A stretch of 64,000 bases of DNA from an uncultured bacterium (GCA_965368975.1 CBDUPA010000005.1:192001-256000); one strand, 5' to 3'; counted from the stretch's first letter, positions 6,392-64,000 are shown. The notes: a model not told the origin generated them from the sequence alone. Made by a program: numbers and translations.

Positions 6392-6404
6392 GCCGAGCAC
6401 GACG

Positions 6405-10706: not shown

Positions 10707-10730
10707 GGGCGGTAGGCAAGATCCAGATTC

Positions 10731-10766
10731 CGATTCTGGGTAGGGGCGGCCCCATGTGGCCGCCCT
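10731..10766 (+). repeat. GTAG-family REP-like palindrome between convergent genes
   Basis: gattctgg-GTAG-gggcggcc-ccatgt-ggccgccc. Confidence 0.75.
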
Positions 10767-10798
10767 CCCTGCGCCGACAGGCGCATCCGATTCCTACC

Positions 10799-13381: not shown

Positions 13382-13443
13382 AGAGCAATCTCCTCGGACG
13401 GATTGAGTCTGGTGACGGGCGGCCAGCAGCCTCTGGCGGCGGC

Positions 13444-14052: not shown

Positions 14053-14104
14053 CGGTAAGAAGGCTCGCTCGGGAAACTCAGGAATCAGGAGAGCCGGCGC
14101 TGCG

Positions 14105-16685: not shown

Positions 16686-30541
<13,856 letters not shown>

Positions 30542-30542
<1 letters not shown>

Positions 30543-32104
30543 TGCCGTCAGAACCCGTGATCGTCGACGAGTACCCGCTGGCGTACGGCCAGCGCACCAT
30601 GTGGTTCGTGCAGCGCCTGGCACCCGACAGCGCCGCCTACAACGTGCTCGCCGCCTTCCGCGTCCGCGGCCAGCTCGATGTCGAGGCCTTCGTCGACGCC
30701 TGGCAGCGGTTGACCGATCGGCACGAAGCCCTGCGCACCACCTACCACGATGTCGATGGCGTGCCGGTGCAGCGCTTGCACGCACGCCTGCCGATCGAGT
30801 CGCAGGTGGTCGATGTGGTGGGGCAAGGGCAGGCGGAGGTGCAAGCCAAGGTCGCCGCCGACGCCCACCGTCCCTTCGACCTGCAGAGCGGCCCGATCGT
30901 GCGCCTGCGGCTCTACCGCTGTTCCGAAGCCGCCGACGAGCACGTCTTCCTGCTCGCCATCCACCACATCGCCATCGACGCTACCGCCCTCGGCTTCTTG
31001 CTCGGCGAGCTGGGCCGCGTCTACCCGGCCCTACGCGACGGCAAGGAACCGCCCGAGCTACCCGCTCTGCCCTGGAGCTTCGGGGACTTCGTCCATTGGC
31101 AGCTGGAGCGGCTGGAAGGTCCGGGCGGCGCTGAGCTGCGGCAGCGCTGGTACCGCCGTCTGAGTGCCTCGCCGCCGCAACTCAACCTGCCCTTCGACCG
31201 TCCGAGATCGACCGTCCAGACCTTTGGTGGCGCCATGCCGAGTGCCACCTACGCTCCGGACCTGGTCGAACGCCTGCGCGCCGTGGGGCAGAAGGTCGAT
31301 GTTCCTCTGCGCGCCGTCTTCCTGGCTGCCTTCCAGGCGCTGCTCTACCGCTACAGCGGCCAGACCGACATCCTCGTCGGCAGCCCCGTCAGCGGTCGCA
31401 CGCGTCCCGAGATGGACCGGCTCGTCGGCTTCTTCGTCAACACCATCGTCATCCGCGCCGATCTCAGCGCTGCCACCGCCGGTACCCTCACCTTCCGCGA
31501 CCTCCTGCGCCACGTCGGGGAGCGCTTCGCCGAAGCCGAGGCGGGCCAGGACTACCCGTTCACGCTCCTGGTCGAACAGCTACAACCGGACCGCAGTCAG
31601 GGGCAATCGCCGTTCTTCCAGGTGTTGTTTGTGTTGTATGGGGGGGAGCCGGTCGTCAAAGATGCCCCGGACCCGGGCCAATTGCAACGCATGATGCAGG
31701 GCGAGGGTGGCTCTCTGGCCACCGGCGACCTGCAACTCGAAGCCATGCCGGTCAAGGGCGAGTCGTCGATGCTCGACCTGAGCTTGTTGATGCACGCCAA
31801 CGAGACACCCGACGGCACCCGCGTCGACGCCAACTTCCAGTACAACACCCACCTCTTCGATGGTTCCACCATCGATACCCTGATGGCCGATTACCGCACG
31901 CTGCTCGAAGCCGTCGCGTCGAATGCCGACCGTCCCGTCGCCGGCCTGCCGGCCTCACTCGGCGTCGCGGAACGCAAGGTGTCGGAAGAAGCCGTGCAGC
32001 GGCTGTCGCAGGCGCAGACGGGAAAGCTCGATGACGTCCGGTCGCGGGCTCAAGAGCGTCTGCAACGTCGAGGGCAGAGAAGGGTTCGATGGAAGAAGGC
32101 GTAA
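30542..32104 (+). CDS. Stand-alone NRPS condensation domain protein
   Basis: PLAYGQRTMWF, RHEALRT, HHIAIDA, VGFFVNT; TGATG coupling to the NRPS. Confidence 0.92.
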
Positions 32105-32123
32105 GCTATATGAAGGGGGTTAT

Positions 32124-33791
32124 ATGAGGGTATTCATTTCTTATTGCAGGGAGGATAAGCGCGTTGCCGATGAAGTATATCTTGGCCTGAGAGACCGAGA
32201 CTTTCTTCCTTGGATGGATGAGCCTCCTGAACCTTACCACCTTGAGGGCATCAGACCCGGAGAGCATTGGAAGATTAGAATCGAGGAGCATTTGGGCCAG
32301 TCTGACTTGGCGATTGTTCTAGTATCATCCATGAGATATTTGAAAAAGAGGCGATATTTTAACAATGAAATGAAGTTGATTTCAGATATCCGGGACTCGA
32401 TGGCGGGGACCGAGATTTTTCTGGTACCGGTAGTGTTAGATGAGGCCCTCAATATCAATGAGGTTCGGTTTGGCCGATCAAATCTAGCCGATATTCACTA
32501 CGTCAGATACTACGCTGGGGGAGTCGGACTTTTATTAAGCGGTCTGGAAGCGCTCAGAGAGAGCATCCAGAATCCCTTCTCTGAGTCACCGTTTGAGACG
32601 AATGATGGCACTTGGCGTAGTAAAGAGCTTTCTGAGGAGGGGTGGGCGATTCTGTTCCCTGAGTCGGCAGGACCAGGCACAAGAGATGCGTTGAAGCCCT
32701 TGATGGATCATCGTAGAAATCAGGTTGGGCCTTTGTTCAGAGAGTTTGAGTACAAGATGGGGGAATCGGTTCAGCAGTTTTTGGGGCGGAATGGTGCTGG
32801 TGCAGGGGTTGTCAACCGAGCAATGATTCCTGCAAACATCCTGATCGTAGGTGACCCCGGGTGGACGGGTGACCCCACTTTGATACCATATGATTTTCAA
32901 ATAGACCTAGGAATACAGTTTTCTGTAGGCAGACTAGCACTGGAAAAAGATGAAGATTTCTCTGTATATGCAAGTAAGTTAGTCTCATATGAGCGCGCTC
33001 TTCCTCGTGAGCCTTTGAAGCTTGGGCTTTTTGCCCCAGTTCATCAAGGAGACATAGTAAGCAAGATCGTCTTGGAGAATCTTGCCAATCCCCTGAAGCT
33101 TGGCATCTCAGCCAGGATCGGACCTGAGAAGGTTGATGAAGTATTTGGCTCTGTGGCTACGAAGGAGCGGCTGACAAGGATGATTTCGAACGCTCAGGGG
33201 GTCATAGTCTCGATGTCACACGGGGTTTCAGGTCAGAGCAGACAGACAAGTTCAATTCTATGTGCAGACTGGGAAGGAGTTGGGACACCGCTTTGCGATC
33301 AAGATCTGTTCTCTGAGGGAGATGTCTGCTCATTGACAAAACGAGGGGAAAGGGATGGGATTAATGGTTCAGTTTTCGTTATGTTTGAGGCGTATGGTTG
33401 TGGAGGTCTCCAAACTAAGAGCAGTGCTCCTTATGTTTCGGCTCTCAGTAATAGCCTTCTTGCTTGCCCGGGGATCTCGACTTTGGCAGTAGTCGGACGG
33501 CTGAGCGAAGGATCGACGTGCACCTTCGATTGGTTCGGAAGAGGCGGAGATGTATGGACGTATGTAATGTTAGTTGATTCTCTGATGACAGGTGCAAAGG
33601 TAGGGGAATCGTTGTCTTTCCTACGGGAACGACAAAAAGTTCTTGCAGGCCAGATAGCTAGCTTGACTGACTCACAGTTGCTCCGATTAGCATATCCTAG
33701 CGGCACTGAACTCCTGCGGTTATGGGACGTTTACAGAGATGCACGTGGATTCGTTCTCTTGGGTGATCCAGCGACAAGACTGATGAGGTAG
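32124..33791 (+). CDS. TIR domain fused to peptidase C25 (gingipain/clan CD)-like domain
   Basis: MRVFISYCRED...WMD...YFNNE...LVPVVLD (TIR); GWAILFP, ILIVGDP, SVGRL, SHG, LCADW, LLGDPA (C25-like); GGGGG RBS before ATG 32124. Confidence 0.8.
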   Translation: MRVFISYCREDKRVADEVYLGLRDRDFLPWMDEPPEPYHLEGIRPGEHWKIRIEEHLGQSDLAIVLVSSMRYLKKRRYFNNEMKLISDIRDSMAGTEIFLVPVVLDEALNINEVRFGRSNLADIHYVRYYAGGVGLLLSGLEALRESIQNPFSESPFETNDGTWRSKELSEEGWAILFPESAGPGTRDALKPLMDHRRNQVGPLFREFEYKMGESVQQFLGRNGAGAGVVNRAMIPANILIVGDPGWTGDPTLIPYDFQIDLGIQFSVGRLALEKDEDFSVYASKLVSYERALPREPLKLGLFAPVHQGDIVSKIVLENLANPLKLGISARIGPEKVDEVFGSVATKERLTRMISNAQGVIVSMSHGVSGQSRQTSSILCADWEGVGTPLCDQDLFSEGDVCSLTKRGERDGINGSVFVMFEAYGCGGLQTKSSAPYVSALSNSLLACPGISTLAVVGRLSEGSTCTFDWFGRGGDVWTYVMLVDSLMTGAKVGESLSFLRERQKVLAGQIASLTDSQLLRLAYPSGTELLRLWDVYRDARGFVLLGDPATRLMR

Positions 33792-35129
33792 GCGATAGGC
33801 TGGATCTCCGAGGAGGATATAGTTCCTGGCATCTTCTAGCGCTAGCCACAGAGTGTCTTCATCTCTAGGCACTAACTGCGGCCCATTCTTTATTTTGCCG
33901 CCGTGTACTTCATTTATAAAAATACAGGCAAGTGCATTGTACCGAGCCTGGAAGTGCCTCATGGCATGGCCTGCCGGAGTGCCTGCTAGTAATTCATTAA
34001 TAACATTCGCGTAGGTTGCAATTTCGCTCGACGGATGCAGAAAGCTTATCGAAGTGTCCCATAACTGGCCAAGGTGCCCAATCACTGCAAGAGCTCCCCT
34101 GGACAGCGCGGTCTTCGCAAGAGCGGACAAGAAGCCTGATTGCGCGTTTTGTTGAGCTCTCTGGAGATTGCGATAATTGCTATGTTTCGGAGTGCCTGCA
34201 CCGCACGTTGTTAGAAGGAAGAGGATTAGTCCGTGCGCCAGTTCGGTAGGTAGATCATCTGATTGCAAGCAATGATCCAGATCTAGTGGCCAAGACATCC
34301 CGGGCCAGTCTTGGCATACAAAATCTCCTTGATGGGAGAACTGCTCGGGACGATCGATTGGAAAAGTAACACCATGGCCTGCAAGCAGGGCGATGTCGAG
34401 ACGTTCTCTCAGGGCAGCGATTAGGTTTTTCTTCGTGGCTGCATGACCGAAAAGCTTGACTATATTGCAGTCAACATCTACTCGACTTAGCTGATCTAGA
34501 ATGGGTGGAAAGAAATCATTATGGAGAACTTGGAGTGCTGGAGCTCCGTTGTGTTCGGCTGCGCAGAATAGTGTTTGGGCCCGGGTTCGTTCTTGCTGAT
34601 CTGAGACTGCCTTGAGAGCGTACTGGCGATAAGACTCAGCGTGATCGAAGTGAAGTCGACCTACAGCATAGGTAGCGGATAATTCTTGTTGTACGCTGAA
34701 TGATATCTCCTCTGGAGATCCTACAATCAAGATATAGTATGGCAACTTGAGAGGGTCTAGTGATCCTGCTCCGCACCCTAATCGATGAAGGAACTGGAAA
34801 GTTGAAGACTCTTGGAGTCCATCCTGAAAGGCGAGCTCTTTGTATAGATTGCCTGCTTCATCTTCTCTGCGATGCCTGAGAGGAGCCAGGGCTCTATATA
34901 TATCACTATCGGTTTCCTTTGGGAAGACTATGCACCAGCCGCTATCCTTGACCGTTGAGAGGTCTATGGGTTTAAGATGAGCTGTGGTTAGCCGGGGTGA
35001 ACTGGCAGCTTCTCGGGGTGATCGAAGGAGTCCTGTGTTCTCAGAAGCCCCTGGTTGGAGCGTGGCTCCAGAAGAGAAGTCAATCCCTATGGTTAGGGGC
35101 TCAGCCATCGTTTTGTGAAAAATTGTCAT
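33720..35129 (-). CDS. Peptidase C25-like protein, paralog of the neighbouring TIR fusion
   Basis: GWCIVFP, PYYILIVGSPEEI, YAVGRLHFD, GHG, CQDW, CGAGTP, LAVIGH, DARNYILLGDPA. Confidence 0.78.
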   Translation of the reverse strand: MTIFHKTMAEPLTIGIDFSSGATLQPGASENTGLLRSPREAASSPRLTTAHLKPIDLSTVKDSGWCIVFPKETDSDIYRALAPLRHRREDEAGNLYKELAFQDGLQESSTFQFLHRLGCGAGSLDPLKLPYYILIVGSPEEISFSVQQELSATYAVGRLHFDHAESYRQYALKAVSDQQERTRAQTLFCAAEHNGAPALQVLHNDFFPPILDQLSRVDVDCNIVKLFGHAATKKNLIAALRERLDIALLAGHGVTFPIDRPEQFSHQGDFVCQDWPGMSWPLDLDHCLQSDDLPTELAHGLILFLLTTCGAGTPKHSNYRNLQRAQQNAQSGFLSALAKTALSRGALAVIGHLGQLWDTSISFLHPSSEIATYANVINELLAGTPAGHAMRHFQARYNALACIFINEVHGGKIKNGPQLVPRDEDTLWLALEDARNYILLGDPAYRLPHQSCRWITQENESTCISVNVP

Positions 35130-51653: not shown

Positions 51654-51997
51654 TCTCGTAGCCGCGGCCTGGGTGACCAAGAGTTGCGTCAGGCCACCGG
51701 TTCATGCGATGCTCTCGGCGGAACCGGAACCCGTCGAGCCAAAGCGATCGAACACCCGGACTCCTCGCCAGGATGTCCTCCGAAGAGGTTCGGTTCCGAA
51801 ACATCCAAAAAGCTCCGGGCTCGACTTCGACTTTGACCTCGGTGCGTGGTACCAACATCCTGGCGCCAGGCACCTACAAGGCTCGATCGTGTCGAACCCG
51901 ACTTCCTTGAGACCCGTAAATTCCAAAGACCCCCTAGGGACCCCGTTCTCGTACGGGCTCCGACGTACCCAGGGATAGAGACAGGAGGGACTTGCCC

Positions 51998-52243
51998 ATG
52001 TCTGCCGTTGCAAACAAGGTGAAGCAGATCATCGTCGACCAACTTGGTGTGGACGAAGACGAGGTGACCATGGACGCTAGCTTCACCGACGATCTCGGCG
52101 CCGACTCCCTCGACATCGTCGAGTTGGTCATGGCCTTCGAAGAAGAATTCAACATCGAGATCCCGGACGAAGAAGCCGAGAAGATCAGCCGCGTCAAGGA
52201 AGCCGTTTCGCACATCGAAGCGGCGGCGAAAGACGCCGAGTAA
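51998..52243 (+). CDS. acpP: Acyl carrier protein
   Basis: [20 protein letters not shown]; AGGAGG RBS. Confidence 0.98.
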
Positions 52244-52273: not shown

Positions 52274-53539
52274 TTGAGCAGAAAGGTCATTGAGACGCGT
52301 CGGGTTGCCGTCACTGGTATCGGTCTGGTTTCCGCCCTCGGGGTGGGGACCGAGATCAACTGGCGGTACCTGCGCGAGGGTAAGAGCGGCGCCGCCCGGA
52401 TCGACCGCTTCGACCCCTCGGAGTTCACCTCACAAATCGCTGCCCAGGTTACCGATTTCGATCCGCTGGACTACCTGCCGAAGAAGGAGGTCAAGAAGAC
52501 CGACTCTTTCACGCAGTATGCCCTAGCGGCTTCGACCTTCGCCATTGAGGACAGCGGCCTGGTGATCGATGGCAGCAACGACGAACGCGTCGGTGTCATC
52601 ATCGGCTCCGGTATCGGCGGTTTGCCGCTGATCGAGGCGACGCACGAGGTGTACATGGAGCGAGGGCCGAGTCGGATCTCGCCCTTCTTCATTCCGGCGA
52701 TGATCTCCAACTTGGCGGCCGGCCAGGTGTCGATCCGCTTCGGGGCCAAAGGCCCGAACACGACGCCGTGCACCGCCTGTACCACCGGCTTGCACGCTGT
52801 CGGAGATGCCTTCCGGCAGATTCAGCTCGGCTATGCCGACGCCATGATCGCTGGCGGTGCCGAGGGGCAGATCACGCCTCTCGGCGTCGGTGGCTTCTGT
52901 GCGATGAAAGCCCTTACCACGCGCAACGACGAGCCGGCAAAGGCGTCGCGGCCGTGGGACAAAGATCGGGACGGTTTCTTGGTTGGCGAAGGTTCCGGCA
53001 TCTTGGTCTTGGAAGCTCTGGACCAAGCGCAGGCGCGCGGGGCCACCATCTACGCCGAGGTCGTCGGCTACGGCATGAGCGCCGATGCCTACCACATCTC
53101 GGCACCACATCCGGACGGCGATGGCGCCGCCCGCGTCATGGCGGCCGCGCTCAAGGACGCCGAACTGCCGCCCGAGAGCATCGGCTACGTCAACGCCCAC
53201 GGTACCTCGACTCCTCTAGGTGACCTCTCCGAAGTGCGGGCCGTGCGGCGAGTGTTCGGTGAGCATGCCGAGCGATTGGCGGTGTCCTCGACCAAGAGTT
53301 GCACGGGCCATATGTTGGGTGCAGCCGGCGGCTTCGAAGCCGGGGTGCTGGCGCTGGCGTTGCACGATCAGACCCTGCCGCCGACCATCAACCTGGACGA
53401 ACCCGGCGAAGAATGTGACTTGGATTTCGTACCCAACACCGCGCGTGTGGTGGAGGGTTTGGAATATGCCTTGACCAACAGCTTCGGTTTCGGCGGCACC
53501 AACGGTGCGCTGATTCTGAGGCGCTGGTCGGGCGCGTAA
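52274..53539 (+). CDS. fabF: 3-oxoacyl-ACP synthase II
   Basis: TACTTG, NAHGTST, GHMLGAAG, NSFGFGG motifs. Confidence 0.97.
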   Translation: MSRKVIETRRVAVTGIGLVSALGVGTEINWRYLREGKSGAARIDRFDPSEFTSQIAAQVTDFDPLDYLPKKEVKKTDSFTQYALAASTFAIEDSGLVIDGSNDERVGVIIGSGIGGLPLIEATHEVYMERGPSRISPFFIPAMISNLAAGQVSIRFGAKGPNTTPCTACTTGLHAVGDAFRQIQLGYADAMIAGGAEGQITPLGVGGFCAMKALTTRNDEPAKASRPWDKDRDGFLVGEGSGILVLEALDQAQARGATIYAEVVGYGMSADAYHISAPHPDGDGAARVMAAALKDAELPPESIGYVNAHGTSTPLGDLSEVRAVRRVFGEHAERLAVSSTKSCTGHMLGAAGGFEAGVLALALHDQTLPPTINLDEPGEECDLDFVPNTARVVEGLEYALTNSFGFGGTNGALILRRWSGA

Positions 53540-53610: not shown

Positions 53611-55485
53611 ATGAATCGTCGGGGTACCGATTGCATGCGACGGTCTCCGTACCACTTCGAGCCCGCGGAACACCTGCCGCAACTGACGGCAGTGATCCGC
53701 GAGCTGGAGGCGCTGGAGGACGTGGCGCCTCGGGATCTGGACCGCATCCAGCGCCGTCATCCCAAGCGAGATGGCCGGGTGTTTTCCAAGAGCGAGATCA
53801 TCCGCGGCTACCGCTACTTGCAGCGCCAGCGAGGTCTCGACCCGGACGCCGGTCGTCTCGTCGAGCGCCTGCAGATGAAACCCGTGCGGACGCACAGCGG
53901 GGTGGCGCCGGTGACCGTGCTGACCAAACCGTATCCGTGTCCCGGGCGATGCATTTTCTGTCCCAACGACGTGCGCATGCCCAAGAGCTACCTGTCCAAC
54001 GAACCCGGAGCCCAACGAGCCGCCAGCCATGGATTCGACCCCTACCTACAGACCTACTTCCGGCTACGCAGCCTGCGCAACATGGGGCACCGCGTGGACA
54101 AGGTCGAGCTGATCGTGCTGGGTGGTACCTGGTCCTTCTATCCGGAGCCCTACCAAATCTGGTTCCTCAAGCGCTGCTTCGACGCTCTCAACGATTTCGC
54201 CGACCGTGACGGTCCGCGGGACGATCCCGACGCCCTGGCGCCGGACGACGCCGTGCCCTTCGACCAGCTCGACGAGATCGGCGTCGCCGCGCACGCCGAC
54301 CGTCTGGAGCGAAGCTACAACCAGGTGGTCAGCGAGCACCTGCAGCAGCATCTCGACGGTCGCCTGCTGCCTGACGACGAGCACGCCGACTGGAGCGATC
54401 TCGAGTCCGTCCAGCGCGTCAACGAGGGACAGAAGGTGCGCTGCGTCGGCCTGGTGCTCGAGACGCGGCCCGACCACATCAGCGAAGACGAAGTCATCCG
54501 GGTGCGCCGCCTGGGCGCCACCAAGGTCCAGATCGGTATCCAGAGCCTGAACGATGTCGTGCTCGCAGCCAATCGCCGAGGCCACGACGTCGCCGCCACG
54601 CGCCGCGCGTTCCGGCTGCTGCGCGCCATGGGCTTCAAGTTGCACGCGCACTGGATGCCCAACCTCTATGGCTCCAACCCGCAAGCCGACCTCGACGACT
54701 TCGAGCGCCTGTTCGGCGACCCTGACTTCTGTCCCGACGAACTCAAGCTCTACCCCTGCTCCCTGATCGAGAGCGCCGAGCTGATGGTGCAGTATCGGGC
54801 TGGTGCGTGGCGCCCGTATAGCGACGACGAACTGCTCGGTGTGGTCACGGGCTGTCTCGAGCGGACGCCGCCCTGGTGCCGGCTGACCCGCGTCATTCGC
54901 GACATCCCGTCGCAGGACATCGTGGTCGGCAACAAGCAGACCAACTTCCGCGAAGTTGCCGAGCGCGCCCTGGCCGAGCGGGGAGGCGGCAGTCGCGACA
55001 TCCGCAGCCGCGAGATTCGCCGCCGCCAGGTGAAAGACGACGAGCTGCACCTCGACGCGATCGAGTACACCAGCGCCGTTGGTCGCGAAGTCTTCCTACA
55101 GTTCATCACCGACGCCGACGAGATCGCCGGTTTCCTGCGGCTGTCGCTGCCTTCCGAGCCCGTCTTCCTGGACGAGATCGCCGACAGCGCGATGGTGCGT
55201 GAAGTGCACGTCTACGGTGCGCTGGCGGGCTTCCAGAGTGCGGGCGAGACGTCCCCATCTCACCCCAAGACCCAAGATCCCAGAACCCAGCACCCCGAGA
55301 TTCAACACCCCAAGACCCAGCATCGGGGCCTCGGTCGCCGTCTGCTCGACGAGGCCGCCCGCCGGGCCGTCGAGGCCGGCTTTCACGACCTCGCCGTCAT
55401 TTCCTCTGTCGGCACCCGTGACTACTACCGCCGCCAGGGCTTCACCGACGGTGAGCTCTACCAACACCTTTCGCTCGTCCACTGA
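53611..55485 (+). CDS. elp3: Elp3 tRNA uridine-34 carboxymethyltransferase (radical SAM + GNAT)
   Basis: KPVRT.SGVAPV, CPGRCIFCP, PKSY...EP, KVELIVLGGTW, ETRPD, RVIRDIP, REVHVYG, QHRGLG, VISSVGTR.YYR..GF. Start may be 53635. Confidence 0.93.
   Translation: MNRRGTDCMRRSPYHFEPAEHLPQLTAVIRELEALEDVAPRDLDRIQRRHPKRDGRVFSKSEIIRGYRYLQRQRGLDPDAGRLVERLQMKPVRTHSGVAPVTVLTKPYPCPGRCIFCPNDVRMPKSYLSNEPGAQRAASHGFDPYLQTYFRLRSLRNMGHRVDKVELIVLGGTWSFYPEPYQIWFLKRCFDALNDFADRDGPRDDPDALAPDDAVPFDQLDEIGVAAHADRLERSYNQVVSEHLQQHLDGRLLPDDEHADWSDLESVQRVNEGQKVRCVGLVLETRPDHISEDEVIRVRRLGATKVQIGIQSLNDVVLAANRRGHDVAATRRAFRLLRAMGFKLHAHWMPNLYGSNPQADLDDFERLFGDPDFCPDELKLYPCSLIESAELMVQYRAGAWRPYSDDELLGVVTGCLERTPPWCRLTRVIRDIPSQDIVVGNKQTNFREVAERALAERGGGSRDIRSREIRRRQVKDDELHLDAIEYTSAVGREVFLQFITDADEIAGFLRLSLPSEPVFLDEIADSAMVREVHVYGALAGFQSAGETSPSHPKTQDPRTQHPEIQHPKTQHRGLGRRLLDEAARRAVEAGFHDLAVISSVGTRDYYRRQGFTDGELYQHLSLVH
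55261..55320 (+). repeat. Degenerate 15-bp tandem repeat (4 copies) in elp3
   Basis: Encodes HPKTQ DPRTQ HPEIQ HPKTQ. Confidence 0.8.
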
Positions 55486-55494
55486 TCGCGCATT

Positions 55495-56442
55495 ATGAAA
55501 CGAACTCTCTTCTTGCTCACGCCGATCTTCCTGATCGTCATTGGCGTCTTCTACTACACGGCCTACCGCAAGACGCGCTCCCAGACCATCGTCTACCAGG
55601 CCCCCGGCGCCGACACTGTGCGCGTCGAGAAGGACCTGATCTACCTGCCGGTGGACGACGAGCGTCCGAATGGAGACACCGCTCGGGCCTTCGACCTGTA
55701 CCTGCCGCCGGAGCCGTCCGCGCAGCCGCTGCCGGTCGTCGTCCTGGTGCATCCGGACGGTCCCGCCAGCGTCATCGACAACTTCAAAGACTGGGGCCAG
55801 ATGACCTCGTGGGCCCGCACCTTCGCCGCCTCCGGCCTGGCTGCCGTCACCTTCAATCGGAGTTCCACCGAACTGCTGAAGGACATCGAAGTTGTCGCCG
55901 CCGAGGTCGAGGCGATGCTGGCCTACCTCCAGCAGCACGGCGAACGCCTCGGCATCGATCCACAGCGCATCGGCATCTGGGCCAACTCCTCGGCGCCGCC
56001 GTTCGCCCTGCGTGCCGTCCTGCGTGATCGTCCCGCAAACGTGCGCGCCATCGCCATCTACTACGGGGCCGTCAGTTTCGACGCCTTCCCGGCCGTGCAC
56101 ACGCGCGACGCCGAGCCGAGCCTGTGGCACGAATTCGATCTCGCCCGTCATCTCGGTGCATCGGGCCACCTGGACCCACCATCGACCGACGCTGAGAGCG
56201 GCCCCGTCCAAGATTTGCCCGCCATGCTCGTGGCGATCGCCGGCAAGGACACCCCCGAGCTGAACACCGCCCTCACCAACTTCATCGATGCCGCACGCGC
56301 CCACGGCGGCGACGTCACCGTACTCGAACATCCCGAAGGCGACCACGCCTTCGACCTGGGTAGCGATACCGACACGACGCGCAACATCGTGCGTCAGACC
56401 ATCGAGTTCTTCCAACATCACCTCACGGAGGCCCGAGGATGA
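55495..56442 (+). CDS. Alpha/beta hydrolase fold protein with N-terminal membrane anchor
   Basis: DLYLP, PVVVLVH, GIDPQRIGIWANS, GKD, HPEGDHAFD motifs. Confidence 0.82.
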   Translation: MKRTLFLLTPIFLIVIGVFYYTAYRKTRSQTIVYQAPGADTVRVEKDLIYLPVDDERPNGDTARAFDLYLPPEPSAQPLPVVVLVHPDGPASVIDNFKDWGQMTSWARTFAASGLAAVTFNRSSTELLKDIEVVAAEVEAMLAYLQQHGERLGIDPQRIGIWANSSAPPFALRAVLRDRPANVRAIAIYYGAVSFDAFPAVHTRDAEPSLWHEFDLARHLGASGHLDPPSTDAESGPVQDLPAMLVAIAGKDTPELNTALTNFIDAARAHGGDVTVLEHPEGDHAFDLGSDTDTTRNIVRQTIEFFQHHLTEARG

Positions 56443-59285
56443 GCTTCCAGACCCCGACTTTCGAGCCCGGAGACACCGTCTCCCACCGCCACAACCCAGA
56501 CCTCGGCCCCGGCCGCATCGTCAGCCTCGATCCGCGGCGCATCCAGGTCGAGTTCCCCGACGCGCGCAAGGTTCTGTTCATCTCCGCCGCCGCCGATGCC
56601 CTCGAAAGGCTGGAGCTACACGCCGGCGGTAAGGCGCGCTATCGCGTCACCGGCAAGAAAGTCGGCTTGGTCAAGCCGAGTGACGACGGCGAGCACTGGC
56701 ACCTGACTAACGGTGAGACCGTTCTCGCCTCCGAGTTGTTGCCGCTGCCGCAGCCGCCGTCACCGTTGGAGCGTCTGGCCTCCGGCAAGGTCGACGCCTT
56801 CGAAGACTTCCGCAACCGCCTCGACGCCCTGCGTCTGCTGCGCCTGCGCGAAGCTCAGGGCCTCGGCTCCTTCCTCGGTGGCCGTATCCGTCTCTTCCCG
56901 CACCAGCTCTACGTCGCCGAGAAAGCCTGCCACAGCGATCCCGTGCGCTGGCTGCTGGCCGACGAGGTCGGCCTCGGCAAGACCGTCGAAGCCTGCCTCA
57001 TTCTGCAGCGCCTGGTGCACACGGGGCGTGCCGGTAAGATCCTGGTGCTGGCGCCCGAAACCCTCACCGTGCAGTGGCTCGGCGAGCTGTGGCGCAAACA
57101 CCACCAGGTCTTCGCCCTGCTCGACCACAAGCGCCTCGCCGACGTCCACCGCGACTTCGGTCGTCGTCTCAACCCCTTCGAGGTCTACACCCGCGCCATC
57201 CTCAGCTTCGAGCTGCTACAAGAGCGGCCCAGCCTGGCACGCCAAGCCGTCGAGGCCGGCATCGACCTGCTCGTGGTCGACGAAGCCCACCACCTCAAGC
57301 GTCCGCCCAAGCACAGCGGCAACCTGCTCTATCGCGCTGTCCAGCGCATTACCAAGCAGGGCAATCACGTGCTGCTGCTCTCCGCCACACCGCTGGAAGA
57401 AGACGCCCACGGCTTCTTCCGCCTGCTGCAGATGCTGCGACCGGAAGAGTTCGCCGAGTCCTCCAGCTTCGAGAAGCGTCTGCGGGCACGGCGCCCCCTG
57501 CCGCCTTGCACCAGCGCTACCCGCCGCCGCGACATCGGCGGCCTGCCGCCGCGCAAGGCCTTCCCGGTCAACCTGCGCAAAGTCGACTGGGCCCCCTGGT
57601 CGCGCATCGAACTCGAACTCCGCCGCCTGACGGCACGCAGTCCCACGCAGCGCAAGCGCCGCCTCGAGCAGCTCGAGCGCTCCCTGTCCTCTCCGGCGTC
57701 CCTGCTCAACCTGTTGGACATCGAAGAGATCAAGGAACCGGTCGATCCGAAGGCCGAGGACGGCAAGAAGAACGGGGACAGCAAGAAGGTCGAAACGCCC
57801 GCGGAGGCGCCCGTCGCAGCAGCCGCACCGGCACCGCCGACCAAGCGCATCGGCAGACCCAAGGGCACGGCGATCGACGAAGAAGAGTACCCCGGCGAAG
57901 GCAAACCCCCGAGCCGTCGTGGCCGGGCCGCCCGCGGCCGTGGCCGCTGGCGCCGCCGCCGGGGCCGTGGAGAGGAGGGGGGCGTCAATCCGGTCGAGAT
58001 CGAGACCAAGGTCGCCGAACTGGCGCGTGACCTGCTCGACGACAACGACGCCGCCGATCCCGAAAAGGATCCCCGCCTCGCCTGGCTGCTCGAACAGCTG
58101 CCGCAGTGGCGCAAAGACGGCGACAAGGTCCTGCTTTTCGTCGCCTGGAAAGACAGCATGGACGCGCTCAAGAAGGCGATCGAGTGGCACGGCCAGACCC
58201 GCGTCAGCCTGTTTCACGAAGAGCTTTCCCCTGAGCGCCGCGACCTCGAAGTCGCGCAGTTCCGCCTGCCCGAAGGCCCCACCTTGCTGCTCTCCACCGA
58301 GTGTGGCGGCGAGGGTCGAAACTTCGAGTTCTGCCGCCGCCTGGTGCTCTACGATTTGCCCCTCGATCCCGCCAAAGTCGAGCAGCGCATCGGCCGTCTC
58401 GATCGCATCGGCCGTAAAGTGCCCACCGAGATCGTCTACTTCCGGCCACCCCGGGGCCTCGGCCGCGTCGCCGTCGAGTTGTACGAGAAACTCGGCGTCT
58501 TCCGCGAACCGCAAAGTGGCATGGTGCGCGAACTCGATCGCATCGCCGAGCGTCTGCGCGACATGGCTCTGGCCAAGCGTCCCCCCGAGCCCGACGCCTT
58601 TGACGATCTCCTCGACTCCGCACGAAAGAGCCGCAACCGCATCCGCCGTGCCGCCTACCACGAGCTGCACCGCGCTCCCTACCGCCGCCGCATGGCCAAG
58701 GACATCCTCCAGCGCGTGCCACCCGACCTCGACGAACTCAACGAAGACGTCGTCCTGCGCGCCGCCGCCCGCTTCGGCTTCAAGATCGAGGAACGTCGCG
58801 GCCCCCGCGCCAACTACATCGAACTAGGCTCCGAAGCCCTGGTCGACCGCCTCCCCGGCGTCAAACCCGGCTCCCGCTTCCTCGGCACCTTCGACCGCGA
58901 ATTCGCCGTCGAAGACGAAGGCATGGACTACTTCGCCTCCGGCCACCCCCTGGTCGAGGGTGTCCTCGCCGAACTCGAAGACGGTCCCCGCGGCCGCTCC
59001 GCGGTCTTCCGTCTGGACGGTGACGAAGAAACCTTCGGTCTGCTCGCCCTCTACAAGAAAGGCCCCGAGTTCGAGGCCGTCGCGGTCGATAGGGAAGGCA
59101 ACAAGCGTCCCGACCTGGTGCAGATCATCCTGGAAGGCGAACAGAAGGTCCATCGCGTCGATGCCCCCAAGTGGACCGGCCAAGCCGGCTGGAAGCCAAC
59201 CCTGGAGCGCATCGCCAAGTACCTGCCGCACGATCGTCCACAAGCGGTAGCGGCGTTCCGCGTCAAGAAGGTGACCGGGGACTGA
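56439..59285 (+). CDS. SNF2-family helicase, RapA/HepA-like
   Basis: LFPHQL, LLADEVGLGKTVEA, DEAHHL, LLSATP, GGEGRNFEF, EQRIGRLDRIG, HPLV motifs. Confidence 0.9.
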   Translation: MSFQTPTFEPGDTVSHRHNPDLGPGRIVSLDPRRIQVEFPDARKVLFISAAADALERLELHAGGKARYRVTGKKVGLVKPSDDGEHWHLTNGETVLASELLPLPQPPSPLERLASGKVDAFEDFRNRLDALRLLRLREAQGLGSFLGGRIRLFPHQLYVAEKACHSDPVRWLLADEVGLGKTVEACLILQRLVHTGRAGKILVLAPETLTVQWLGELWRKHHQVFALLDHKRLADVHRDFGRRLNPFEVYTRAILSFELLQERPSLARQAVEAGIDLLVVDEAHHLKRPPKHSGNLLYRAVQRITKQGNHVLLLSATPLEEDAHGFFRLLQMLRPEEFAESSSFEKRLRARRPLPPCTSATRRRDIGGLPPRKAFPVNLRKVDWAPWSRIELELRRLTARSPTQRKRRLEQLERSLSSPASLLNLLDIEEIKEPVDPKAEDGKKNGDSKKVETPAEAPVAAAAPAPPTKRIGRPKGTAIDEEEYPGEGKPPSRRGRAARGRGRWRRRRGRGEEGGVNPVEIETKVAELARDLLDDNDAADPEKDPRLAWLLEQLPQWRKDGDKVLLFVAWKDSMDALKKAIEWHGQTRVSLFHEELSPERRDLEVAQFRLPEGPTLLLSTECGGEGRNFEFCRRLVLYDLPLDPAKVEQRIGRLDRIGRKVPTEIVYFRPPRGLGRVAVELYEKLGVFREPQSGMVRELDRIAERLRDMALAKRPPEPDAFDDLLDSARKSRNRIRRAAYHELHRAPYRRRMAKDILQRVPPDLDELNEDVVLRAAARFGFKIEERRGPRANYIELGSEALVDRLPGVKPGSRFLGTFDREFAVEDEGMDYFASGHPLVEGVLAELEDGPRGRSAVFRLDGDEETFGLLALYKKGPEFEAVAVDREGNKRPDLVQIILEGEQKVHRVDAPKWTGQAGWKPTLERIAKYLPHDRPQAVAAFRVKKVTGD

Positions 59286-59295
59286 GAGCGTCCTG

Positions 59296-60081
59296 GTGGA
59301 CGAAAAAACGAGGCGCGCCCTCAACGCCATCAACCGCCACTTCTACCAGCACCACGCTGAGCGCTTCAGCGAGACTCGCTCGAAGCCTTGGCAAGGTTGG
59401 GATTACGTCGTGCGTCGCTTGCTGGAACGCTCGGTAGGGAAACCGGCGGAGCCTTTGCGCGTGCTGGACGTGGGCTGTGGCAACGGGCGGTTCGGGGAGC
59501 TACTGCACCAGAAGTTCCCGCGGGCCGTCGAGTACCTCGGCATTGACTCCAGCGCGCCGCTCCTGGAGCACGCGCGCGCGCGACTGCAGGGGCGAGGGGA
59601 CTGGGATGTCGAATTCGTCCAGCACGACTTCGTGGAAGCTGGGCTGGCAGAAGTGGTGGGCGAGCGATTCGACCTGGTGGTGCTGTTTGGCGTGCTGCAC
59701 CACATACCGGGTGCCGAGGTGCGACAGCGCTTGGTCGGAGAGTTATTGGGGAGCCTGGCGCCAGGTGGGGAGGTGGTGCTGTCGGTGTGGCGCTTTGCGG
59801 AGGACCCGCGGTATGAGCGTCGCGTGGTGAGCTGGGAGGAGCACAACGCGTGGGTGCGGGAGAGCGGGGTGGGCGTCGAGATGCTGGTGGATGCTGGGGA
59901 GGTCGAGGAGGGGGATGTGTTGCTGCGGTGGGGTGGGAGGGAGTCGAGTTGGTGGCGGTATTGTCATGCGGTGGGGGAGGGGGAGTTGGGGGAGCTGGTG
60001 AAGCGGGGTGGTGGGATTGTGGTGGAAGCGGGGGTGGGGGATGGGGGGAATGGGTACTGGTGGGTCAAGTTGGAGAGTTGA
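59296..60081 (+). CDS. Class I SAM-dependent methyltransferase, Trm9/ALKBH8-like
   Basis: FY...AERFSETR..PW, VLDVGCGNGR, VLHHIP, L.PGG...LSVW, RYCH. Confidence 0.8.
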   Translation: MDEKTRRALNAINRHFYQHHAERFSETRSKPWQGWDYVVRRLLERSVGKPAEPLRVLDVGCGNGRFGELLHQKFPRAVEYLGIDSSAPLLEHARARLQGRGDWDVEFVQHDFVEAGLAEVVGERFDLVVLFGVLHHIPGAEVRQRLVGELLGSLAPGGEVVLSVWRFAEDPRYERRVVSWEEHNAWVRESGVGVEMLVDAGEVEEGDVLLRWGGRESSWWRYCHAVGEGELGELVKRGGGIVVEAGVGDGGNGYWWVKLES

Positions 60082-60120: not shown

Positions 60121-60168
60121 TTGACACCTCGGAGGTAGATGACAATACTGGTCTTACCCGCTTCTTAC
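60121..60168 (+). promoter_or_regulatory. Putative sigma70 promoter and operator of the TA pair
   Basis: TTGACA-17 nt-AATACT, followed by two TCTTAC boxes. Confidence 0.55.
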
Positions 60169-60200: not shown

Positions 60201-60464
60201 ATGTCGAGCATACCCGCCACCACCCGACTCTCCACCAAAGGTCAACTCATCATCCCTAAAGACATCCGTGACCGCCACGGCTGGCGTGCCGGAAGTGCGT
60301 TGATCGTCGAAGACCGGGGCACAGAAGTCGTATTGCGGTCGCCTCTGGAGATCCCGGAAACGACCTTGGAAGACCTGGTGGGCTGTACCGGCTATTCCGG
60401 TCCAAGGCGCTCACTCGAAGAGATGGAAGAGGCGATCGCGAGGGGGGCGAGGGAGCGGAGATGA
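60201..60464 (+). CDS. AbrB/MazE/SpoVT family antitoxin (VapB-like)
   Basis: TRLSTKGQLIIPKDIR; AGAGGA RBS; ATGA overlap with the PIN gene. Confidence 0.9.
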   Translation: MSSIPATTRLSTKGQLIIPKDIRDRHGWRAGSALIVEDRGTEVVLRSPLEIPETTLEDLVGCTGYSGPRRSLEEMEEAIARGARERR

Positions 60465-60868
60465 TCGGGCTCGACACGAATGTCCTAGTGAGAATCGTGA
60501 CGCGTGATGATCCCGAACAGCTTCCTGCCGCTATGGCAGTCATGGAAGCTGCCCGGCTTCATGTCACCAAAACGGTGCTGCAAGAGCTGGAGTGGGTGCT
60601 GCGCTATAGCTACCGCCTCGGACGCGAAGAGATCAGCCGGGCCTTGGTGGGTTTGCTGGGACTACGGCGCCTGGAAGTGGAAGATCGGGAAGCAGTCGTC
60701 AGGGCATACCAGGGATACCAGGTCGGAATGGATTGGGCAGATGCACTCCACTTGGCTTCGAGACCAGCAGGTGGTTCGTTGAGCCGCTTTGCCACGTTCG
60801 ACCGAAAACTGGCCAAGACGGCGGAAGGTGTCGAGGCAATGCCAGAGGTCGAGCTGCTCGGAGCCTGA
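60461..60868 (+). CDS. vapC: PIN domain toxin
   Basis: LDTNVLVR, ELEWVL, DWADALH, TFDRKL motifs. Confidence 0.92.
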   Translation: MIGLDTNVLVRIVTRDDPEQLPAAMAVMEAARLHVTKTVLQELEWVLRYSYRLGREEISRALVGLLGLRRLEVEDREAVVRAYQGYQVGMDWADALHLASRPAGGSLSRFATFDRKLAKTAEGVEAMPEVELLGA

Positions 60869-60884: not shown

Positions 60885-62315
60885 TCATCCCGGCAGCTTT
60901 GACGCGTCCACATCCTCCGGCACCGCATCCCCTCGACCCTGCAACCACTTGCGGAACGTATCCTTGTCCAGCGCCTTCTCTAGCCCATCCAGGGGATCCG
61001 CCGTCCCGGCTTCGACGAGCTTCTTCAGGCTGTCATCCATCGCCACCATGCCGACCTTGCGGCCGCCGGAGATGACGTCGGGGATCTGGTGGGTCTTGCC
61101 TTCGCGGATGGCGGAGGAGAGGGCGGGGTTGCGCAGCAATACCTCGACGGCGGCGACGCGGCCTCCGCCTTTTCTGGGCAGGAGCTGCTGGGCGACGATG
61201 CCTTGGATGACGCTGGAGAGCACACCGCGGATCTCGTCGATGCGGCTGGCGGGGAAGACGCTGACGATACGGTCGACGGTCTTGGAGGCGGAGTTGGTGT
61301 GCAGGGTGCCGAAGACGAGGAGGCCGGTGTCGGCGGCGTTGAGGGCGATGCCGATGGTTTCGACGTCGCGCATTTCGCCGACCAGGACGGCGTCGGGGTC
61401 TTCACGTAGGGCCATTCTCAGGGCGTGGGAGAAGCTGGGAGCGTGAGCGCCGATCTCGCGGTGGCTGATGACGCTCTGCTGGTTCTGGTGCACGAACTCG
61501 ATGGGATCCTCGATGGTGATGAAGTGCATGGGACGCTTCTGGTTCATCTCGTGGATCATGGCGGCCAGGGTGGTGCTCTTGCCGGAGCCGGTGGGGCCGG
61601 TGACCAGGACCAAGCCTGAGTTCAGGCGGGTGAGTCTGCGCAGGACGCGCGGGAGCTTGAGATCATCGAGGGTGAGAATCTTGCTCGGGATGATGCGGAA
61701 GACGGCGCCCATGCCGCGCTCTTGCTGGAAGAGGTTGACGCGGAACCGGGCGAGGCCGGGGACCTCGTAGGCAAAGTCCATGTCGCCGGTGGCGCGGTAG
61801 CGCGACCACAGTTCCGGCGGCGTGACGGGGCGCATCAGGTTTTCGAAGTCGCGGTCGTCGAGCACACGGTAGCGGATGGGCTCGATACGACCGGAGAGGC
61901 GCAGCATGGGAGGACGGCCGGCGCTCAGGTGCAGATCGGAGGCGCCGCGGTCTTGCATCAGCTTGAGGAAGCGGTCGATGCGGTTGGTGCGGTGCTCGGT
62001 CTCGACGCTCACGGCGGCTGGCTGGGCTGCTTGTTGAGCTGGCGCCGCGGGTTGAGCTGGTGCCGCGGGCTGGGCCGGTGCTGGCTGAGCTGCGGCTGGC
62101 TGGGGTGCGGGCGAGACCGGTGGGGGCGTCGGCGCCGCGGGAGCGGGCGAAGCAGGGGATTGAGTCGCCGGTGCCTGGGGAGCTGCCGGTGCCTGGGGAG
62201 CTGCTGGGACCTGCGGCACTGCTGGTGCTGGGGGAGCCGGTTGGGTTGCAGCTGCGGGGGCCGTGTCGTCGGGTGGCAGGTCGATGACTCTTGGCGTCTG
62301 TGGGGTGTCGCTCAT
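60885..62315 (-). CDS. pilT: PilT/PilU family ATPase with Pro/Ala/Gln-rich N-terminal extension
   Basis: GASDLHL, RFRVN, GPTGSGKSTT, IEDPIEF, LREDPD..LVGEMRD, GTLHT motifs. Confidence 0.92.
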   Translation of the reverse strand: MSDTPQTPRVIDLPPDDTAPAAATQPAPPAPAVPQVPAAPQAPAAPQAPATQSPASPAPAAPTPPPVSPAPQPAAAQPAPAQPAAPAQPAAPAQQAAQPAAVSVETEHRTNRIDRFLKLMQDRGASDLHLSAGRPPMLRLSGRIEPIRYRVLDDRDFENLMRPVTPPELWSRYRATGDMDFAYEVPGLARFRVNLFQQERGMGAVFRIIPSKILTLDDLKLPRVLRRLTRLNSGLVLVTGPTGSGKSTTLAAMIHEMNQKRPMHFITIEDPIEFVHQNQQSVISHREIGAHAPSFSHALRMALREDPDAVLVGEMRDVETIGIALNAADTGLLVFGTLHTNSASKTVDRIVSVFPASRIDEIRGVLSSVIQGIVAQQLLPRKGGGRVAAVEVLLRNPALSSAIREGKTHQIPDVISGGRKVGMVAMDDSLKKLVEAGTADPLDGLEKALDKDTFRKWLQGRGDAVPEDVDASKLPG

Positions 62316-62325
62316 ATCTGGATGC

Positions 62326-64000
62326 TCATGCGTTGGGTTCCTGCTGGCTGAGGAAGCCGGGATCGCACATGGGGGCGAAGGTGGCGGGCTTGTCGGCAGC
62401 CTTCCAGGCGGTCTCGGGGGAAATCAAGTCGGCTTCGACAAGGTCCATGAGGCTCTGGTCGAGCATGCGCATGCCGATCTGGCGACCGATCTGCATCAGG
62501 CCGGGAAGCTGGAAGGTCTCGTCGCGGCGGATCGTCGAGCCGACGCTCATGGTGCCCTTGAGGACCTCGAAGGCGGCGACGCGGCCGTGGCCGCTCTTGT
62601 GCTGGAGCAGACGCTGGCAGACGATGTACTTGAGCGATTCGGACAGTGCCATGCGCACCTGGGCCTTCTCATCGGCCGGGAAGCTGTCGACCAGGCGATC
62701 GATGGTCTGGACGGCATTGGTGGTGTGCAGGGTGCCGATCATGAGGTGACCGGTCTCGGCGGCTTCGAGCGCCATGCGGATGGTGTCGGTGTCGCGCAGC
62801 TCGCCCACCACGATGATGTCCGGGTCTTCACGCAGGGCGGCGCGCAGGCCGCTGGCGAAGGCCTTGGTATCGCGGCCCACTTGACGCTGGTTGATCAAGG
62901 CCTGCTTGGGTGGATGGACGAACTCGATCGGGTCTTCCAGGCTGATCAGGTGCGACGGCTTGGTCTCGTTGATCAGGTTGATCAGCGCGGTGAGGGTGGT
63001 GCTCTTGCCGCAGCCGGAAGGGCCGGAGATGACGATGACGCCCTGGTGGAAGTCGAGCAGTTCCTTGAGCTGTTCGGGCAGGCCGAGTTCGGCGAAGCTG
63101 GGCGGTCGGTTGGGGATGACGCGGAAGGAGGCGCACAGGCCGAGACGTTGCTCGTAGGCGTTGGCGCGGTAGCGGCCGACTTCGGGGATGGCGTGGCAGA
63201 AGTCGAGGCCCTTCTCTTCCTCCAGGGTCGCCCACTGCTGGTCGTCGAGGGCAGCGCGCAGGTAGGCTGCGCTCTGTTCTGCGGTGATCGGCTTGAGGTG
63301 GTCGAGACGGTAGAGGACGCCGTCGCGGCGTACGACGGGCGGCTCGCCGACGCTGATGTGCAGGTCGGAGGCTTCCATGTCGCGGATTTGCACGAGCAGC
63401 CGGTCGAGCGGGTTGGAGAGCTTGCTAGTGTCGACCTTCGGGCCGCCTTCGCCTTCCTGGTGTGCGACCTGGAACAGCTCGTTCATGCCGCGTAGCACGT
63501 CGTTGGCGCGCAGGCGTACGTCGGCGTCGGGGTCGCGGTCGCGGACTTGCTTGAGGATGCTGAGCAGACGCCGGTCGTTGAACTTGGAGAACGCCTGCAG
63601 CACCTCCATGCGTACTTCCGGTCGCGGGTCGCGCAGCAGTTGGCTCAGCGGCTGCAATGACGAGACGGCGCCGATGTGGGCCAGCGCGTCGACGGCGGCC
63701 CAGCGGGTGTCTTCATCTTGCAGCATGCGCACCAGATGCGGCACGGCGCGCTCGTCCTTGAGGTTGCCGAGCACTTCACAAGCGGTGACGCGCAGCCACC
63801 AGTCCTTGTCTGCCAGCAGCTTGCAGAAGGGCTCGACGAGACGTTTGTCGTTGAAGCCTTCGGCCAGCATCAGCGCGGCGGTACGGATCTCGGGTGTCGG
63901 ATGGCCGAACAGCTTGACGGCGGCGCGCAGCACCGGCTCGCCGCCTTCGCGCAGGGCCTCGTGGATGCGCAGGCGTAGCCAGCCGGCCATCTTGTGGCCA
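62326..64000 (-). CDS. HEAT-repeat protein fused to PilT/PilU family ATPase (5' end beyond the window)
   Basis: HEAT-PBS-like repeats (L.DKDWWLRV.A, L.DP.PEVR) followed by ASDLHI, GPSGCGKSTT, LREDPD, GHL..GTLHT; frame open to the window edge. Confidence 0.9.
   Translation of the reverse strand, partial: GHKMAGWLRLRIHEALREGGEPVLRAAVKLFGHPTPEIRTAALMLAEGFNDKRLVEPFCKLLADKDWWLRVTACEVLGNLKDERAVPHLVRMLQDEDTRWAAVDALAHIGAVSSLQPLSQLLRDPRPEVRMEVLQAFSKFNDRRLLSILKQVRDRDPDADVRLRANDVLRGMNELFQVAHQEGEGGPKVDTSKLSNPLDRLLVQIRDMEASDLHISVGEPPVVRRDGVLYRLDHLKPITAEQSAAYLRAALDDQQWATLEEEKGLDFCHAIPEVGRYRANAYEQRLGLCASFRVIPNRPPSFAELGLPEQLKELLDFHQGVIVISGPSGCGKSTTLTALINLINETKPSHLISLEDPIEFVHPPKQALINQRQVGRDTKAFASGLRAALREDPDIIVVGELRDTDTIRMALEAAETGHLMIGTLHTTNAVQTIDRLVDSFPADEKAQVRMALSESLKYIVCQRLLQHKSGHGRVAAFEVLKGTMSVGSTIRRDETFQLPGLMQIGRQIGMRMLDQSLMDLVEADLISPETAWKAADKPATFAPMCDPGFLSQQEPNA

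Follow-up and report, generated by a model that had tools for sequence, protein, structure and literature searches.

The locus and its Elp3 gene

The locus described here is a run of four genes at positions 53611-60081 of a 64,000 nucleotide (nt) stretch of DNA from an uncultured bacterium (GCA_965368975.1 CBDUPA010000005.1:192001-256000). The whole stretch is called the window in the following, and has a G+C content of about 65%. The run opens with an Elp3 gene (53611-55485, + strand, 624 amino acids, aa) and closes with the gene of a class I S-adenosylmethionine (SAM) methyltransferase resembling Trm9 and ALKBH8 (59296-60081, + strand, 261 aa, GTG start). Two genes are interposed, one encoding an alpha/beta-hydrolase with an N-terminal hydrophobic anchor (55495-56442, + strand, 315 aa), the other a RapA/HepA-like SNF2 ATPase (56439-59285, + strand, 948 aa). 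An earlier reading of the window, made from the sequence alone (hereafter the sequence-only reading), had described four co-oriented genes spaced by 9, -4 and 10 nt, and the coordinates of the open reading frames (ORFs), all on the + strand, confirm both orientation and spacing. The -4 gap is an ATGA overlap of the hydrolase stop and the ATPase start codons. The functional unit would be the pair formed by Elp3 and the methyltransferase, not the four-gene run.

The Elp3 protein is complete, as had been assumed from the sequence. It scores 451.6 bits against TIGR01211 (cut-off 350), residues 82-617 lying on profile positions 50-517 of 522, and features Radical_SAM, Radical_SAM_C and GNAT Pfam domains. 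The catalytic motifs are intact: the radical-SAM cysteines C110, C114 and C117 (CxxxCxxC) align with those of the archaeal M. infernus Elp3 (MinElp3), and the acetyl-CoA motif (QHxGxG) reads QHRGLGRRL in the window protein, aligned with QHMGYGRML in MinElp3. Matches in the PDB include MinElp3 (E = 3e-94), D. mccartyi Elp3 (DmcElp3, E = 5.7e-93) and further Elp3 chains, eukaryotic ones included, with E values up to 1e-70. Like the stand-alone Elp3 proteins of D. mccartyi and archaea, the protein combines radical-SAM and lysine acetyltransferase domains, and no other Elongator subunits were seen in the window.

Two insertions (at about 197-262 and 540-572) set the window protein apart from MinElp3. 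What distinguishes it from DmcElp3 is an N-terminal extension of about 100 aa, basic in character, where Arg or Lys make up about one residue in five. The annotated start is supported by the Elp3 proteins of relatives, which align from residue 9-16 onward in tblastn analyses of the related loci. A basic N-terminus is described as an aid to tRNA binding, absent in DmcElp3 and present in archaeal and eukaryotic Elp3 (PMC6367351).

The methyltransferase family and its active site

The assignment of the last gene product to a bacterial branch of the Trm9/ALKBH8 lineage is supported by sequence and profile comparisons. In a single-sequence search of the PDB, the top of 66 matches is Y. lipolytica Trm9 (YlTrm9; chain 5cm2_Z, E = 4.1e-9), the only one among the 60 matches listed whose alignment (26-257) extends beyond residue 201. 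The same chain ranks first when the search is made with A1, a 32-sequence profile of the methyltransferase family (E = 1.4e-13, next match 6.4e-11). Upon alignment of A1 to one mite ALKBH8, hhalign returned a probability of 98.8% (E = 5.6e-17, 197 columns). Three mite ALKBH8 proteins were retrieved in a profile search of longer proteins, as the best named matches (E = 1.8e-15 to 2.7e-12, query coverage 87-92%); a single-sequence search of the same kind gave 7 matches, no ALKBH8 among them. Per-domain scores of the ALKBH8 proteins are 63-72 bits over profile positions 14-231, those of unrelated methyltransferases at most 55.8 bits and confined to positions 49-166 or so. The ALKBH8 alignment spans the N-terminal helix and the lid besides the Rossmann core. 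Outside the family, the closest kin are the methyltransferase domains of ALKBH8 and yeast Trm9. The motifs quoted for the last gene in the sequence-only reading are present, and are homologous to those of Trm9 and ALKBH8 rather than alike by chance, as the hhalign probability and the top-ranking 5cm2_Z match indicate. At least 5 of 120 listed homologues carry the automatic name TRM9 at JGI. The GTG start is supported by the N-terminus, which lines up with the N-termini of the family.

The AlphaFold2 model of the methyltransferase (predicted local distance difference test score 92.9) features a two-strand lid (residues 207-212 and 219-224) between beta5 and the next helix, the same lid architecture as described in the paper reporting the Trm9 structure (PMC4678810). 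An extra helical segment, at about 171-190, precedes the lid. In Foldseek searches Trm9 ranks second, with a target-normalised TM-score of 0.72, the highest among the matches listed. The window enzyme shares with yeast Trm9 and the corresponding domain of animal ALKBH8, both tRNA (carboxymethyluridine34-5-O)-methyltransferases, the class I SAM fold, an N-terminal helix with the pattern Y...F.xTR, the D.GCGNG motif, a pair of His residues after beta4 and a Trp after beta5. Also in common are the two-strand lid, with D..L.W and R-Y-x-H (Cys for Tyr in the bacterial family), and probably a C-terminal Asn. Bacterial members differ from Trm9 and ALKBH8 because they are stand-alone proteins of about 240-300 aa, devoid of RRM and AlkB domains and of an evident Trm112 partner, and carry the extra helical insert before the lid; identity to YlTrm9 is only about 22%.

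Residue conservation was counted over 81 sequences, made up by the window protein and the proteins from the best 80 loci, found in at least 7 phyla, of 435 relatives confirmed in a genome scan. Residues of yeast Trm9 (ScTrm9) were mapped from the PDB phmmer alignment, and from hhalign and hmmalign alignments to ALKBH8. Changes to Ala at eight ScTrm9 residues, R29, D72, H116, W145, W168, R241, Y243 and N271, are reported to cause zymocin resistance and loss of activity (PMC4678810). Six of the eight fall on invariant or near-invariant positions of the family. R29, H116, W145 and R241 correspond to R28, H136, W165 and R221 of the window protein, each found in 81/81 sequences; D72, the SAM-binding Asp, corresponds to D84 (79/81), and W168 to W212 (73/81, Phe in the other eight). 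The W212-W168 match is that of hhalign and hmmalign with ALKBH8, the phmmer alignment with 5cm2_Z having put W212 one gap away. The counterpart of N271 is probably the Asn found two residues before a conserved aromatic residue (69/81, Ser in 10); the register is off by one, the Asn of ALKBH8 and YlTrm9 sitting one residue before the aromatic pair. Y243 is replaced by C223; among the 81 sequences this position holds Cys 66 times, Val 10 times, Ala four times and Ser once, and never Tyr.

Further positions are shared. H115 of ScTrm9 matches H135 (79/81), and the H115A mutant is described as still zymocin-sensitive (PMC4678810). Y17 and F24, both found in 81/81 sequences, match ScTrm9 Y18 and F25, and are spaced as in ALKBH8; according to the same paper, the Tyr and Phe of the N-terminal helix sit over SAM in the Trm9 model (PMC4678810). 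In the D.GCGNG motif, D58, G60, C61 and G62 are each present in 81 sequences, N63 in 80, G64 in 77. Conservation of GCGNGR and of the HH pair is partly by construction, because both served as patterns to retrieve the loci; no such dependence affects the remaining positions. All the mapped positions are found in the three ALKBH8 proteins too, which have Tyr where the bacterial family has Cys. In line with the motif likeness observed at the outset, residues essential by mutagenesis are kept, N271 probably so, except for the replacement of Tyr243 by Cys.

A family tree was drawn from 79 sequences, rows L033 and L049 being dropped as over-long ORF calls. Its branching follows phyla, one group comprising Chloroflexota, another Acidobacteriota plus Myxococcota, and another Patescibacteria, and the window methyltransferase is placed in the Acidobacteriota/Myxococcota part. 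In a more careful tree including other methyltransferases (55 rows, six long rows removed), ALKBH8 groups with the divergent family members P0125-P0127 (support 99/92), and 14 of the 16 other methyltransferases make a single clade apart from the family and ALKBH8 (100/98). Moderately resolved and thinly sampled, the tree is consistent with a Trm9/ALKBH8 affinity.

An exhaustive search of representative sequences yielded 1,876 clusters (50% identity) at E <= 1e-30, a number which rises to 5,127 when the limit is set at 1e-10, and the family spreads over Chloroflexota, Acidobacteriota, Myxococcota, several Patescibacteria lineages and other phyla. The top 150 representatives are all stand-alone proteins of 238-370 aa. 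No fusion of Elp3 to the methyltransferase was found among these, nor among the 7 and the 85 longer matches. Fusions of other kinds were observed. P0271 (527 aa) has a full family methyltransferase (315 bits) followed by a C-terminal SpoU-type RNA 2'-O-methyltransferase domain, which hints at an RNA substrate; it is a single cluster from one contig, and could be an artefact of gene calling. In P0125-P0127 (484-494 aa), which are of the Peregrinibacteria type, the family domain is fused to a WecG/TagA-type glycosyltransferase. Five loci labelled as uncultured Pseudomonadales (L020, L028, L040, L050 and L065) encode methyltransferases which group with those of Patescibacteria, and have Patescibacteria-like neighbours; the labels of these bins may be wrong.

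Linkage to elp3 and surroundings of the pair

Neighbours of the methyltransferase were searched in the 80 loci by tblastn (E <= 1e-5). Co-occurrence with elp3, the lack of which would have spoken against the sequence-only reading, is clear: Elp3 is encoded within 10 kb of the methyltransferase in 56/80 loci, and in 47/62 when only loci with at least 2.5 kb upstream are considered. Elp3 is upstream and divergent in 55/80 loci, and the gap is shorter than 400 nt in 37 of these 55, hence at least 37 pairs are directly divergent. Some of the larger distances are overestimated, since the alignment took in no more of Elp3 than its C-terminal part. The pair is therefore usually head-to-head elsewhere; in the window it is co-oriented, with two unrelated genes in between. 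Upon clustering of the ORFs of the loci, the next commonest neighbour family was found in 11 loci, and none in more. No recurrent third gene accompanies the pair, and neither Trm112 nor a thiolation enzyme was found among the neighbours scanned in the loci. These are unrelated housekeeping genes (DUF427, SDR, galactokinase, DHODH-VKOR, VIT1 and others), each found within related genomes only.

The interposed genes behave differently from elp3. The hydrolase has a hydrophobic N-terminus and weak matches to Pfam BD-FAE (29.8 bits) and Abhydrolase_3, and no homologue was found in any of the 80 loci at the tblastn threshold given above. The SNF2 ATPase matches Pfam SNF2-rel_dom, Helicase_C and RapA_C (34.2 bits, cut-off 26.8), and carries a low-complexity insertion rich in K, R and E. 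Its best NCBIfam model is RapA (NF003426, 361.3 bits, cut-off 576), ahead of DpdE (233) and DrmD (210); it is named RapA-like because the score is below the NF003426 cut-off while RapA_C passes. ATPase homologues adjoin the pair in 3/80 loci, L003 (4931-7351), L004 (11507-14401) and L067 (about 10723-14571). They are about 50% identical to the window ATPase and convergent with the methyltransferase, in an order and orientation which differ from those of the window.

In L004, a different alpha/beta hydrolase (10807-11472) has a start codon overlapping the methyltransferase stop codon. It is unrelated in sequence to the window hydrolase (E = 17). Unrelated hydrolases (Abhydrolase_6, dienelactone hydrolase) reside beside the methyltransferase or Elp3 in L064 (6390-7208) and L071 (7000-8094), as in L004, and by a rough estimate the frequency of hydrolases beside the pair is about that expected by chance. 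The hydrolase is treated as a passenger, and the ATPase as a passenger or a lineage-specific neighbour. The possibility that the interposed genes are passengers, allowed for when the window was first read, is borne out by these counts.

Upstream of Elp3 lies a fatty-acid synthesis run, made up by yceD, rpmF, plsX, fabD, fabG, acpP (51992-52243) and fabF. The last of these (52274-53539, + strand, Pfam ketoacyl-synt domains) ends 71 nt upstream of Elp3, and no terminator-like site was found on the + strand of the fabF-Elp3 interval. A promoter-like site is found at 60121-60149, downstream of the methyltransferase gene. Directly 3' of the latter are a MazE/AbrB-type antitoxin (60201-60464, + strand, Pfam MazE_antitoxin) and a PIN toxin (60461-60868, + strand, Pfam PIN), the antitoxin stop and toxin start codons overlapping. 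This pair is the downstream boundary, and is outside the feature. Beyond it, convergent, are two tandem T2SSE/PilB-type ATPases (60885-63990, - strand), the second with N-terminal HEAT repeats. No tRNA and no Rfam RNA was found in the window.

Other parts of the window are worth recording. The interval 31923-35129 has a G+C content of 0.50-0.54, as against about 0.65 elsewhere in the window. It encodes a 622-aa TIR-domain protein (31923-33791), with weak PADLOC matches, and, convergently, an ORF of 469 aa which Peptidase_C25 matches weakly; the interval resembles a defence-type island of acquired origin. Within 16686-32104 are a non-ribosomal peptide synthetase of 4,618 aa, in which Condensation, AMP-binding and PP-binding domains each match in four stretches, and, after it, a separate protein with a Condensation domain. 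The 535-aa product of 6339-7946 carries an eCIS core domain (PF13699), which suggests a gene related to contractile injection systems.

A putative two-enzyme wobble-uridine pathway

Elp3 and the Trm9-like methyltransferase probably make up a bacterial Elongator-type pathway of two enzymes, the former predicted to make 5-carboxymethyluridine at the tRNA wobble position (cm5U34), the latter 5-methoxycarbonylmethyluridine (mcm5U34). In the first step Elp3 would use a SAM-derived radical and acetyl-CoA to place a carboxymethyl group onto C5 of U34 in some tRNAs; this role is suggested by membership in the Elp3 family, and by published work on archaeal and Dehalococcoides Elp3. In the second step the methyltransferase would use SAM to O-methylate the cm5U34 carboxylate, yielding mcm5U34 or a derivative, as suggested by homology, by conservation of the active site and by linkage of the genes. 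The same three lines support the two consecutive eukaryote/archaea-type wobble steps proposed in the sequence-only reading. Gene structure, protein families, residue conservation and linkage are observed, and from these we infer substrates, products and the order of the steps.

Several results weigh against this pathway, or against the Trm9 kinship of the methyltransferase. Pfam and NCBIfam assign to this protein only generic class I domains. A profile of the C-terminal 90 positions, which include the lid (A2, built from the window sequence and 40 of 78 usable loci sequences, L033 and L049 being left out as over-long ORF calls), failed to bring up Trm9 in the PDB at E <= 10, and returned just six chance-level matches to glycosidases; the lid likeness therefore rests on short motifs inside a longer, significant alignment. 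Foldseek does not separate Trm9 from other class I methyltransferases, and the first rank is held by an uncharacterised Clostridium enzyme. In the quick tree (61 rows), the family, ALKBH8 and one long-branch outsider come together with a value of only 82 in the Shimodaira-Hasegawa-like approximate likelihood ratio test. In the careful tree, the other 2 of the 16 methyltransferases attach inside the family, with a branch length of 2.73 and weak support. The comparison set used for the trees is small, made up by three mite ALKBH8 proteins and outgroups taken solely from multi-domain proteins, without yeast and archaeal Trm9. The fusion to a WecG-type glycosyltransferase in the three Peregrinibacteria members does not suggest tRNA, and Elp3 was missing from 15 loci which extend 10 kb to either side, most of them in one Chloroflexota clade. 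The R-x-Y of the lid is only half kept, R221 being invariant and the Tyr position never Tyr; the change of Tyr243 to Cys implies that substrate contact may differ. The Y243A mutant of ScTrm9 is reported to keep about 10% of activity (PMC4678810).

That no Trm112 gene was found in the window weighs on the same side. Eukaryotic and archaeal Trm9 enzymes require Trm112. The sequence-only reading had seen none in the window, and this is upheld by a scan of 49 small intergenic ORFs and of larger window genes, in which no Trm112p match was found. Neither a recurrent small neighbour nor a recurrent Trm112 was found across the 80 loci. F125, invariant in A1, aligns with F116 of YlTrm9, which is described as a residue contacting Trm112 (PMC4678810).

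The replacement of Tyr243 keeps alive the view that the methyltransferase is a true Trm9 relative working with Elp3, with an end product other than mcm5U; it may, for instance, methylate another Elp3-dependent intermediate or a thiolated or ribose-methylated form, or act at another position. The view fits the prevalence of Cys at a position where the three ALKBH8 proteins keep Tyr, the extra helical segment before the lid and the fusion of one member (P0271) to a SpoU 2'-O-methyltransferase. The intermediate used by Trm9 itself is given as unsettled in reviews (PMC5699542). Nevertheless, the family conserves the remaining residues thought in Trm9 to bind the carboxylate of cm5U and the uracil ring (R28, H135/H136, W165, R221 and probably the Asn), and a different product is rather unlikely. 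It is very unlikely that the protein is an ordinary class I enzyme acting on small molecules or proteins, the Trm9 likeness being generic and the proximity to Elp3 due to chance. Profile matches which are generic or below cut-off (CpaM, UbiG, BchM), the unnamed or generic methyltransferase clusters which are the only neighbours in the ESM Atlas, and the failure of the C-terminal profile to retrieve Trm9 would be expected of such an enzyme. Yet the ALKBH8 alignment takes in the N-terminal helix and the lid, not the core alone, and a chance neighbour is contradicted by the linkage counts, Elp3 being found in 56/80 loci across several phyla and no other family in more than 11.

The tight gaps and the ATGA overlap speak for a cooperation of all four genes, in which Elp3 and Trm9 would, in this lineage, have the RapA-like ATPase and the hydrolase as functional partners, the latter for instance cleaving methyl esters. 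So do the RapA-like genes found beside the pair in three distant relatives despite changes in gene order, and the L004 hydrolase overlapping the methyltransferase stop. The cooperation is highly doubtful, since only 3/80 loci have the ATPase close to the pair, and the membrane anchor or signal at the N-terminus of the hydrolase suits a cytoplasmic tRNA substrate poorly. The hydrolase was rejected as a conserved partner, the window and L004 proteins not being homologous and homologues being found in 0/80 loci. Hydrolase, ATPase and methyltransferase could alternatively be seen as a system akin to DISARM, BREX, Dpd or MADS, directed against phages or modifying DNA, with Elp3 as a bystander, because the ATPase is matched by PADLOC models DpdE, DrmD and BrxH (167-176 bits) and the methyltransferase by mad2 (80 bits). 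This is extremely improbable. The mad2 model also matched, at 27-82 bits, each of 14 further class I methyltransferases put to the test, three unrelated controls and the three ALKBH8 proteins included, and the mad2 identity was rejected as generic. The ATPase scores higher with RapA than with DpdE and DrmD in NCBIfam, and is above the cut-off of Pfam RapA_C; association with the methyltransferase is as rare as stated for the ATPase, and absent for the hydrolase. The methyltransferase tree, moreover, follows phyla and is not patchy.

The pathway favoured here, in which Elp3 would provide cm5U34 and the methyltransferase mcm5U34, may be compared with known routes to modified wobble uridines. CmoM of Gammaproteobacteria likewise uses SAM to O-methylate a carboxyl group on the side chain of a wobble uridine, converting uridine 5-oxyacetic acid (cmo5U) to its methyl ester (mcmo5U). 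No CmoM model is found among the best 25 of the 31 NCBIfam matches of the window methyltransferase. Matches to CmoA and CmoB are weak and far below cut-offs, and linkage is to elp3 rather than to cmoA or cmoB. The usual bacterial pathway to C5-modified wobble uridines (xm5U34), that of MnmE and MnmG (plus MnmC), has the same target, the C5 side chain of the wobble uridine (PMC7663514, PMC5372719), and enzymes and chemistry which are unrelated. Archaeal Trm9 of Sulfolobus is described as likewise clustered with elp3 (PMC6144793, PMC5372719).

A 2017 review regards bacterial genes resembling eukaryotic Trm112-dependent methyltransferases as not detectable (PMC5372719). A 2020 review places Elp3 in one bacterial clade, and sees no direct evidence for bacterial derivatives of cm5U (xcm5U) (PMC7663514); a 2026 paper reports Elp3 in 'numerous bacteria' (PMC13315578). 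No description of a bacterial Trm9 was found in literature searches, which did not cover supplements.

A bacterial Trm9-like partner of Elp3 predicts the presence of mcm5U, or of a derivative, in bacterial tRNA. Chances are about even that Elp3 and Trm9 make up a widespread, largely vertically inherited bacterial module for wobble-uridine modifications of the mcm5U type, working without other Elongator subunits and perhaps without Trm112, which may replace MnmEG in, for example, reduced Patescibacteria. The pair would offer simple, stand-alone enzymes for both steps, dispensing with Elongator and possibly with Trm112; at the same time, the methyltransferase is a candidate client for uncharacterised bacterial homologues of Trm112. 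If the proposal is true, the mcm5U branch is not a speciality of archaea and eukaryotes; the pair is also relevant to the question whether the domains split before or after the Elongator-type pathway arose.

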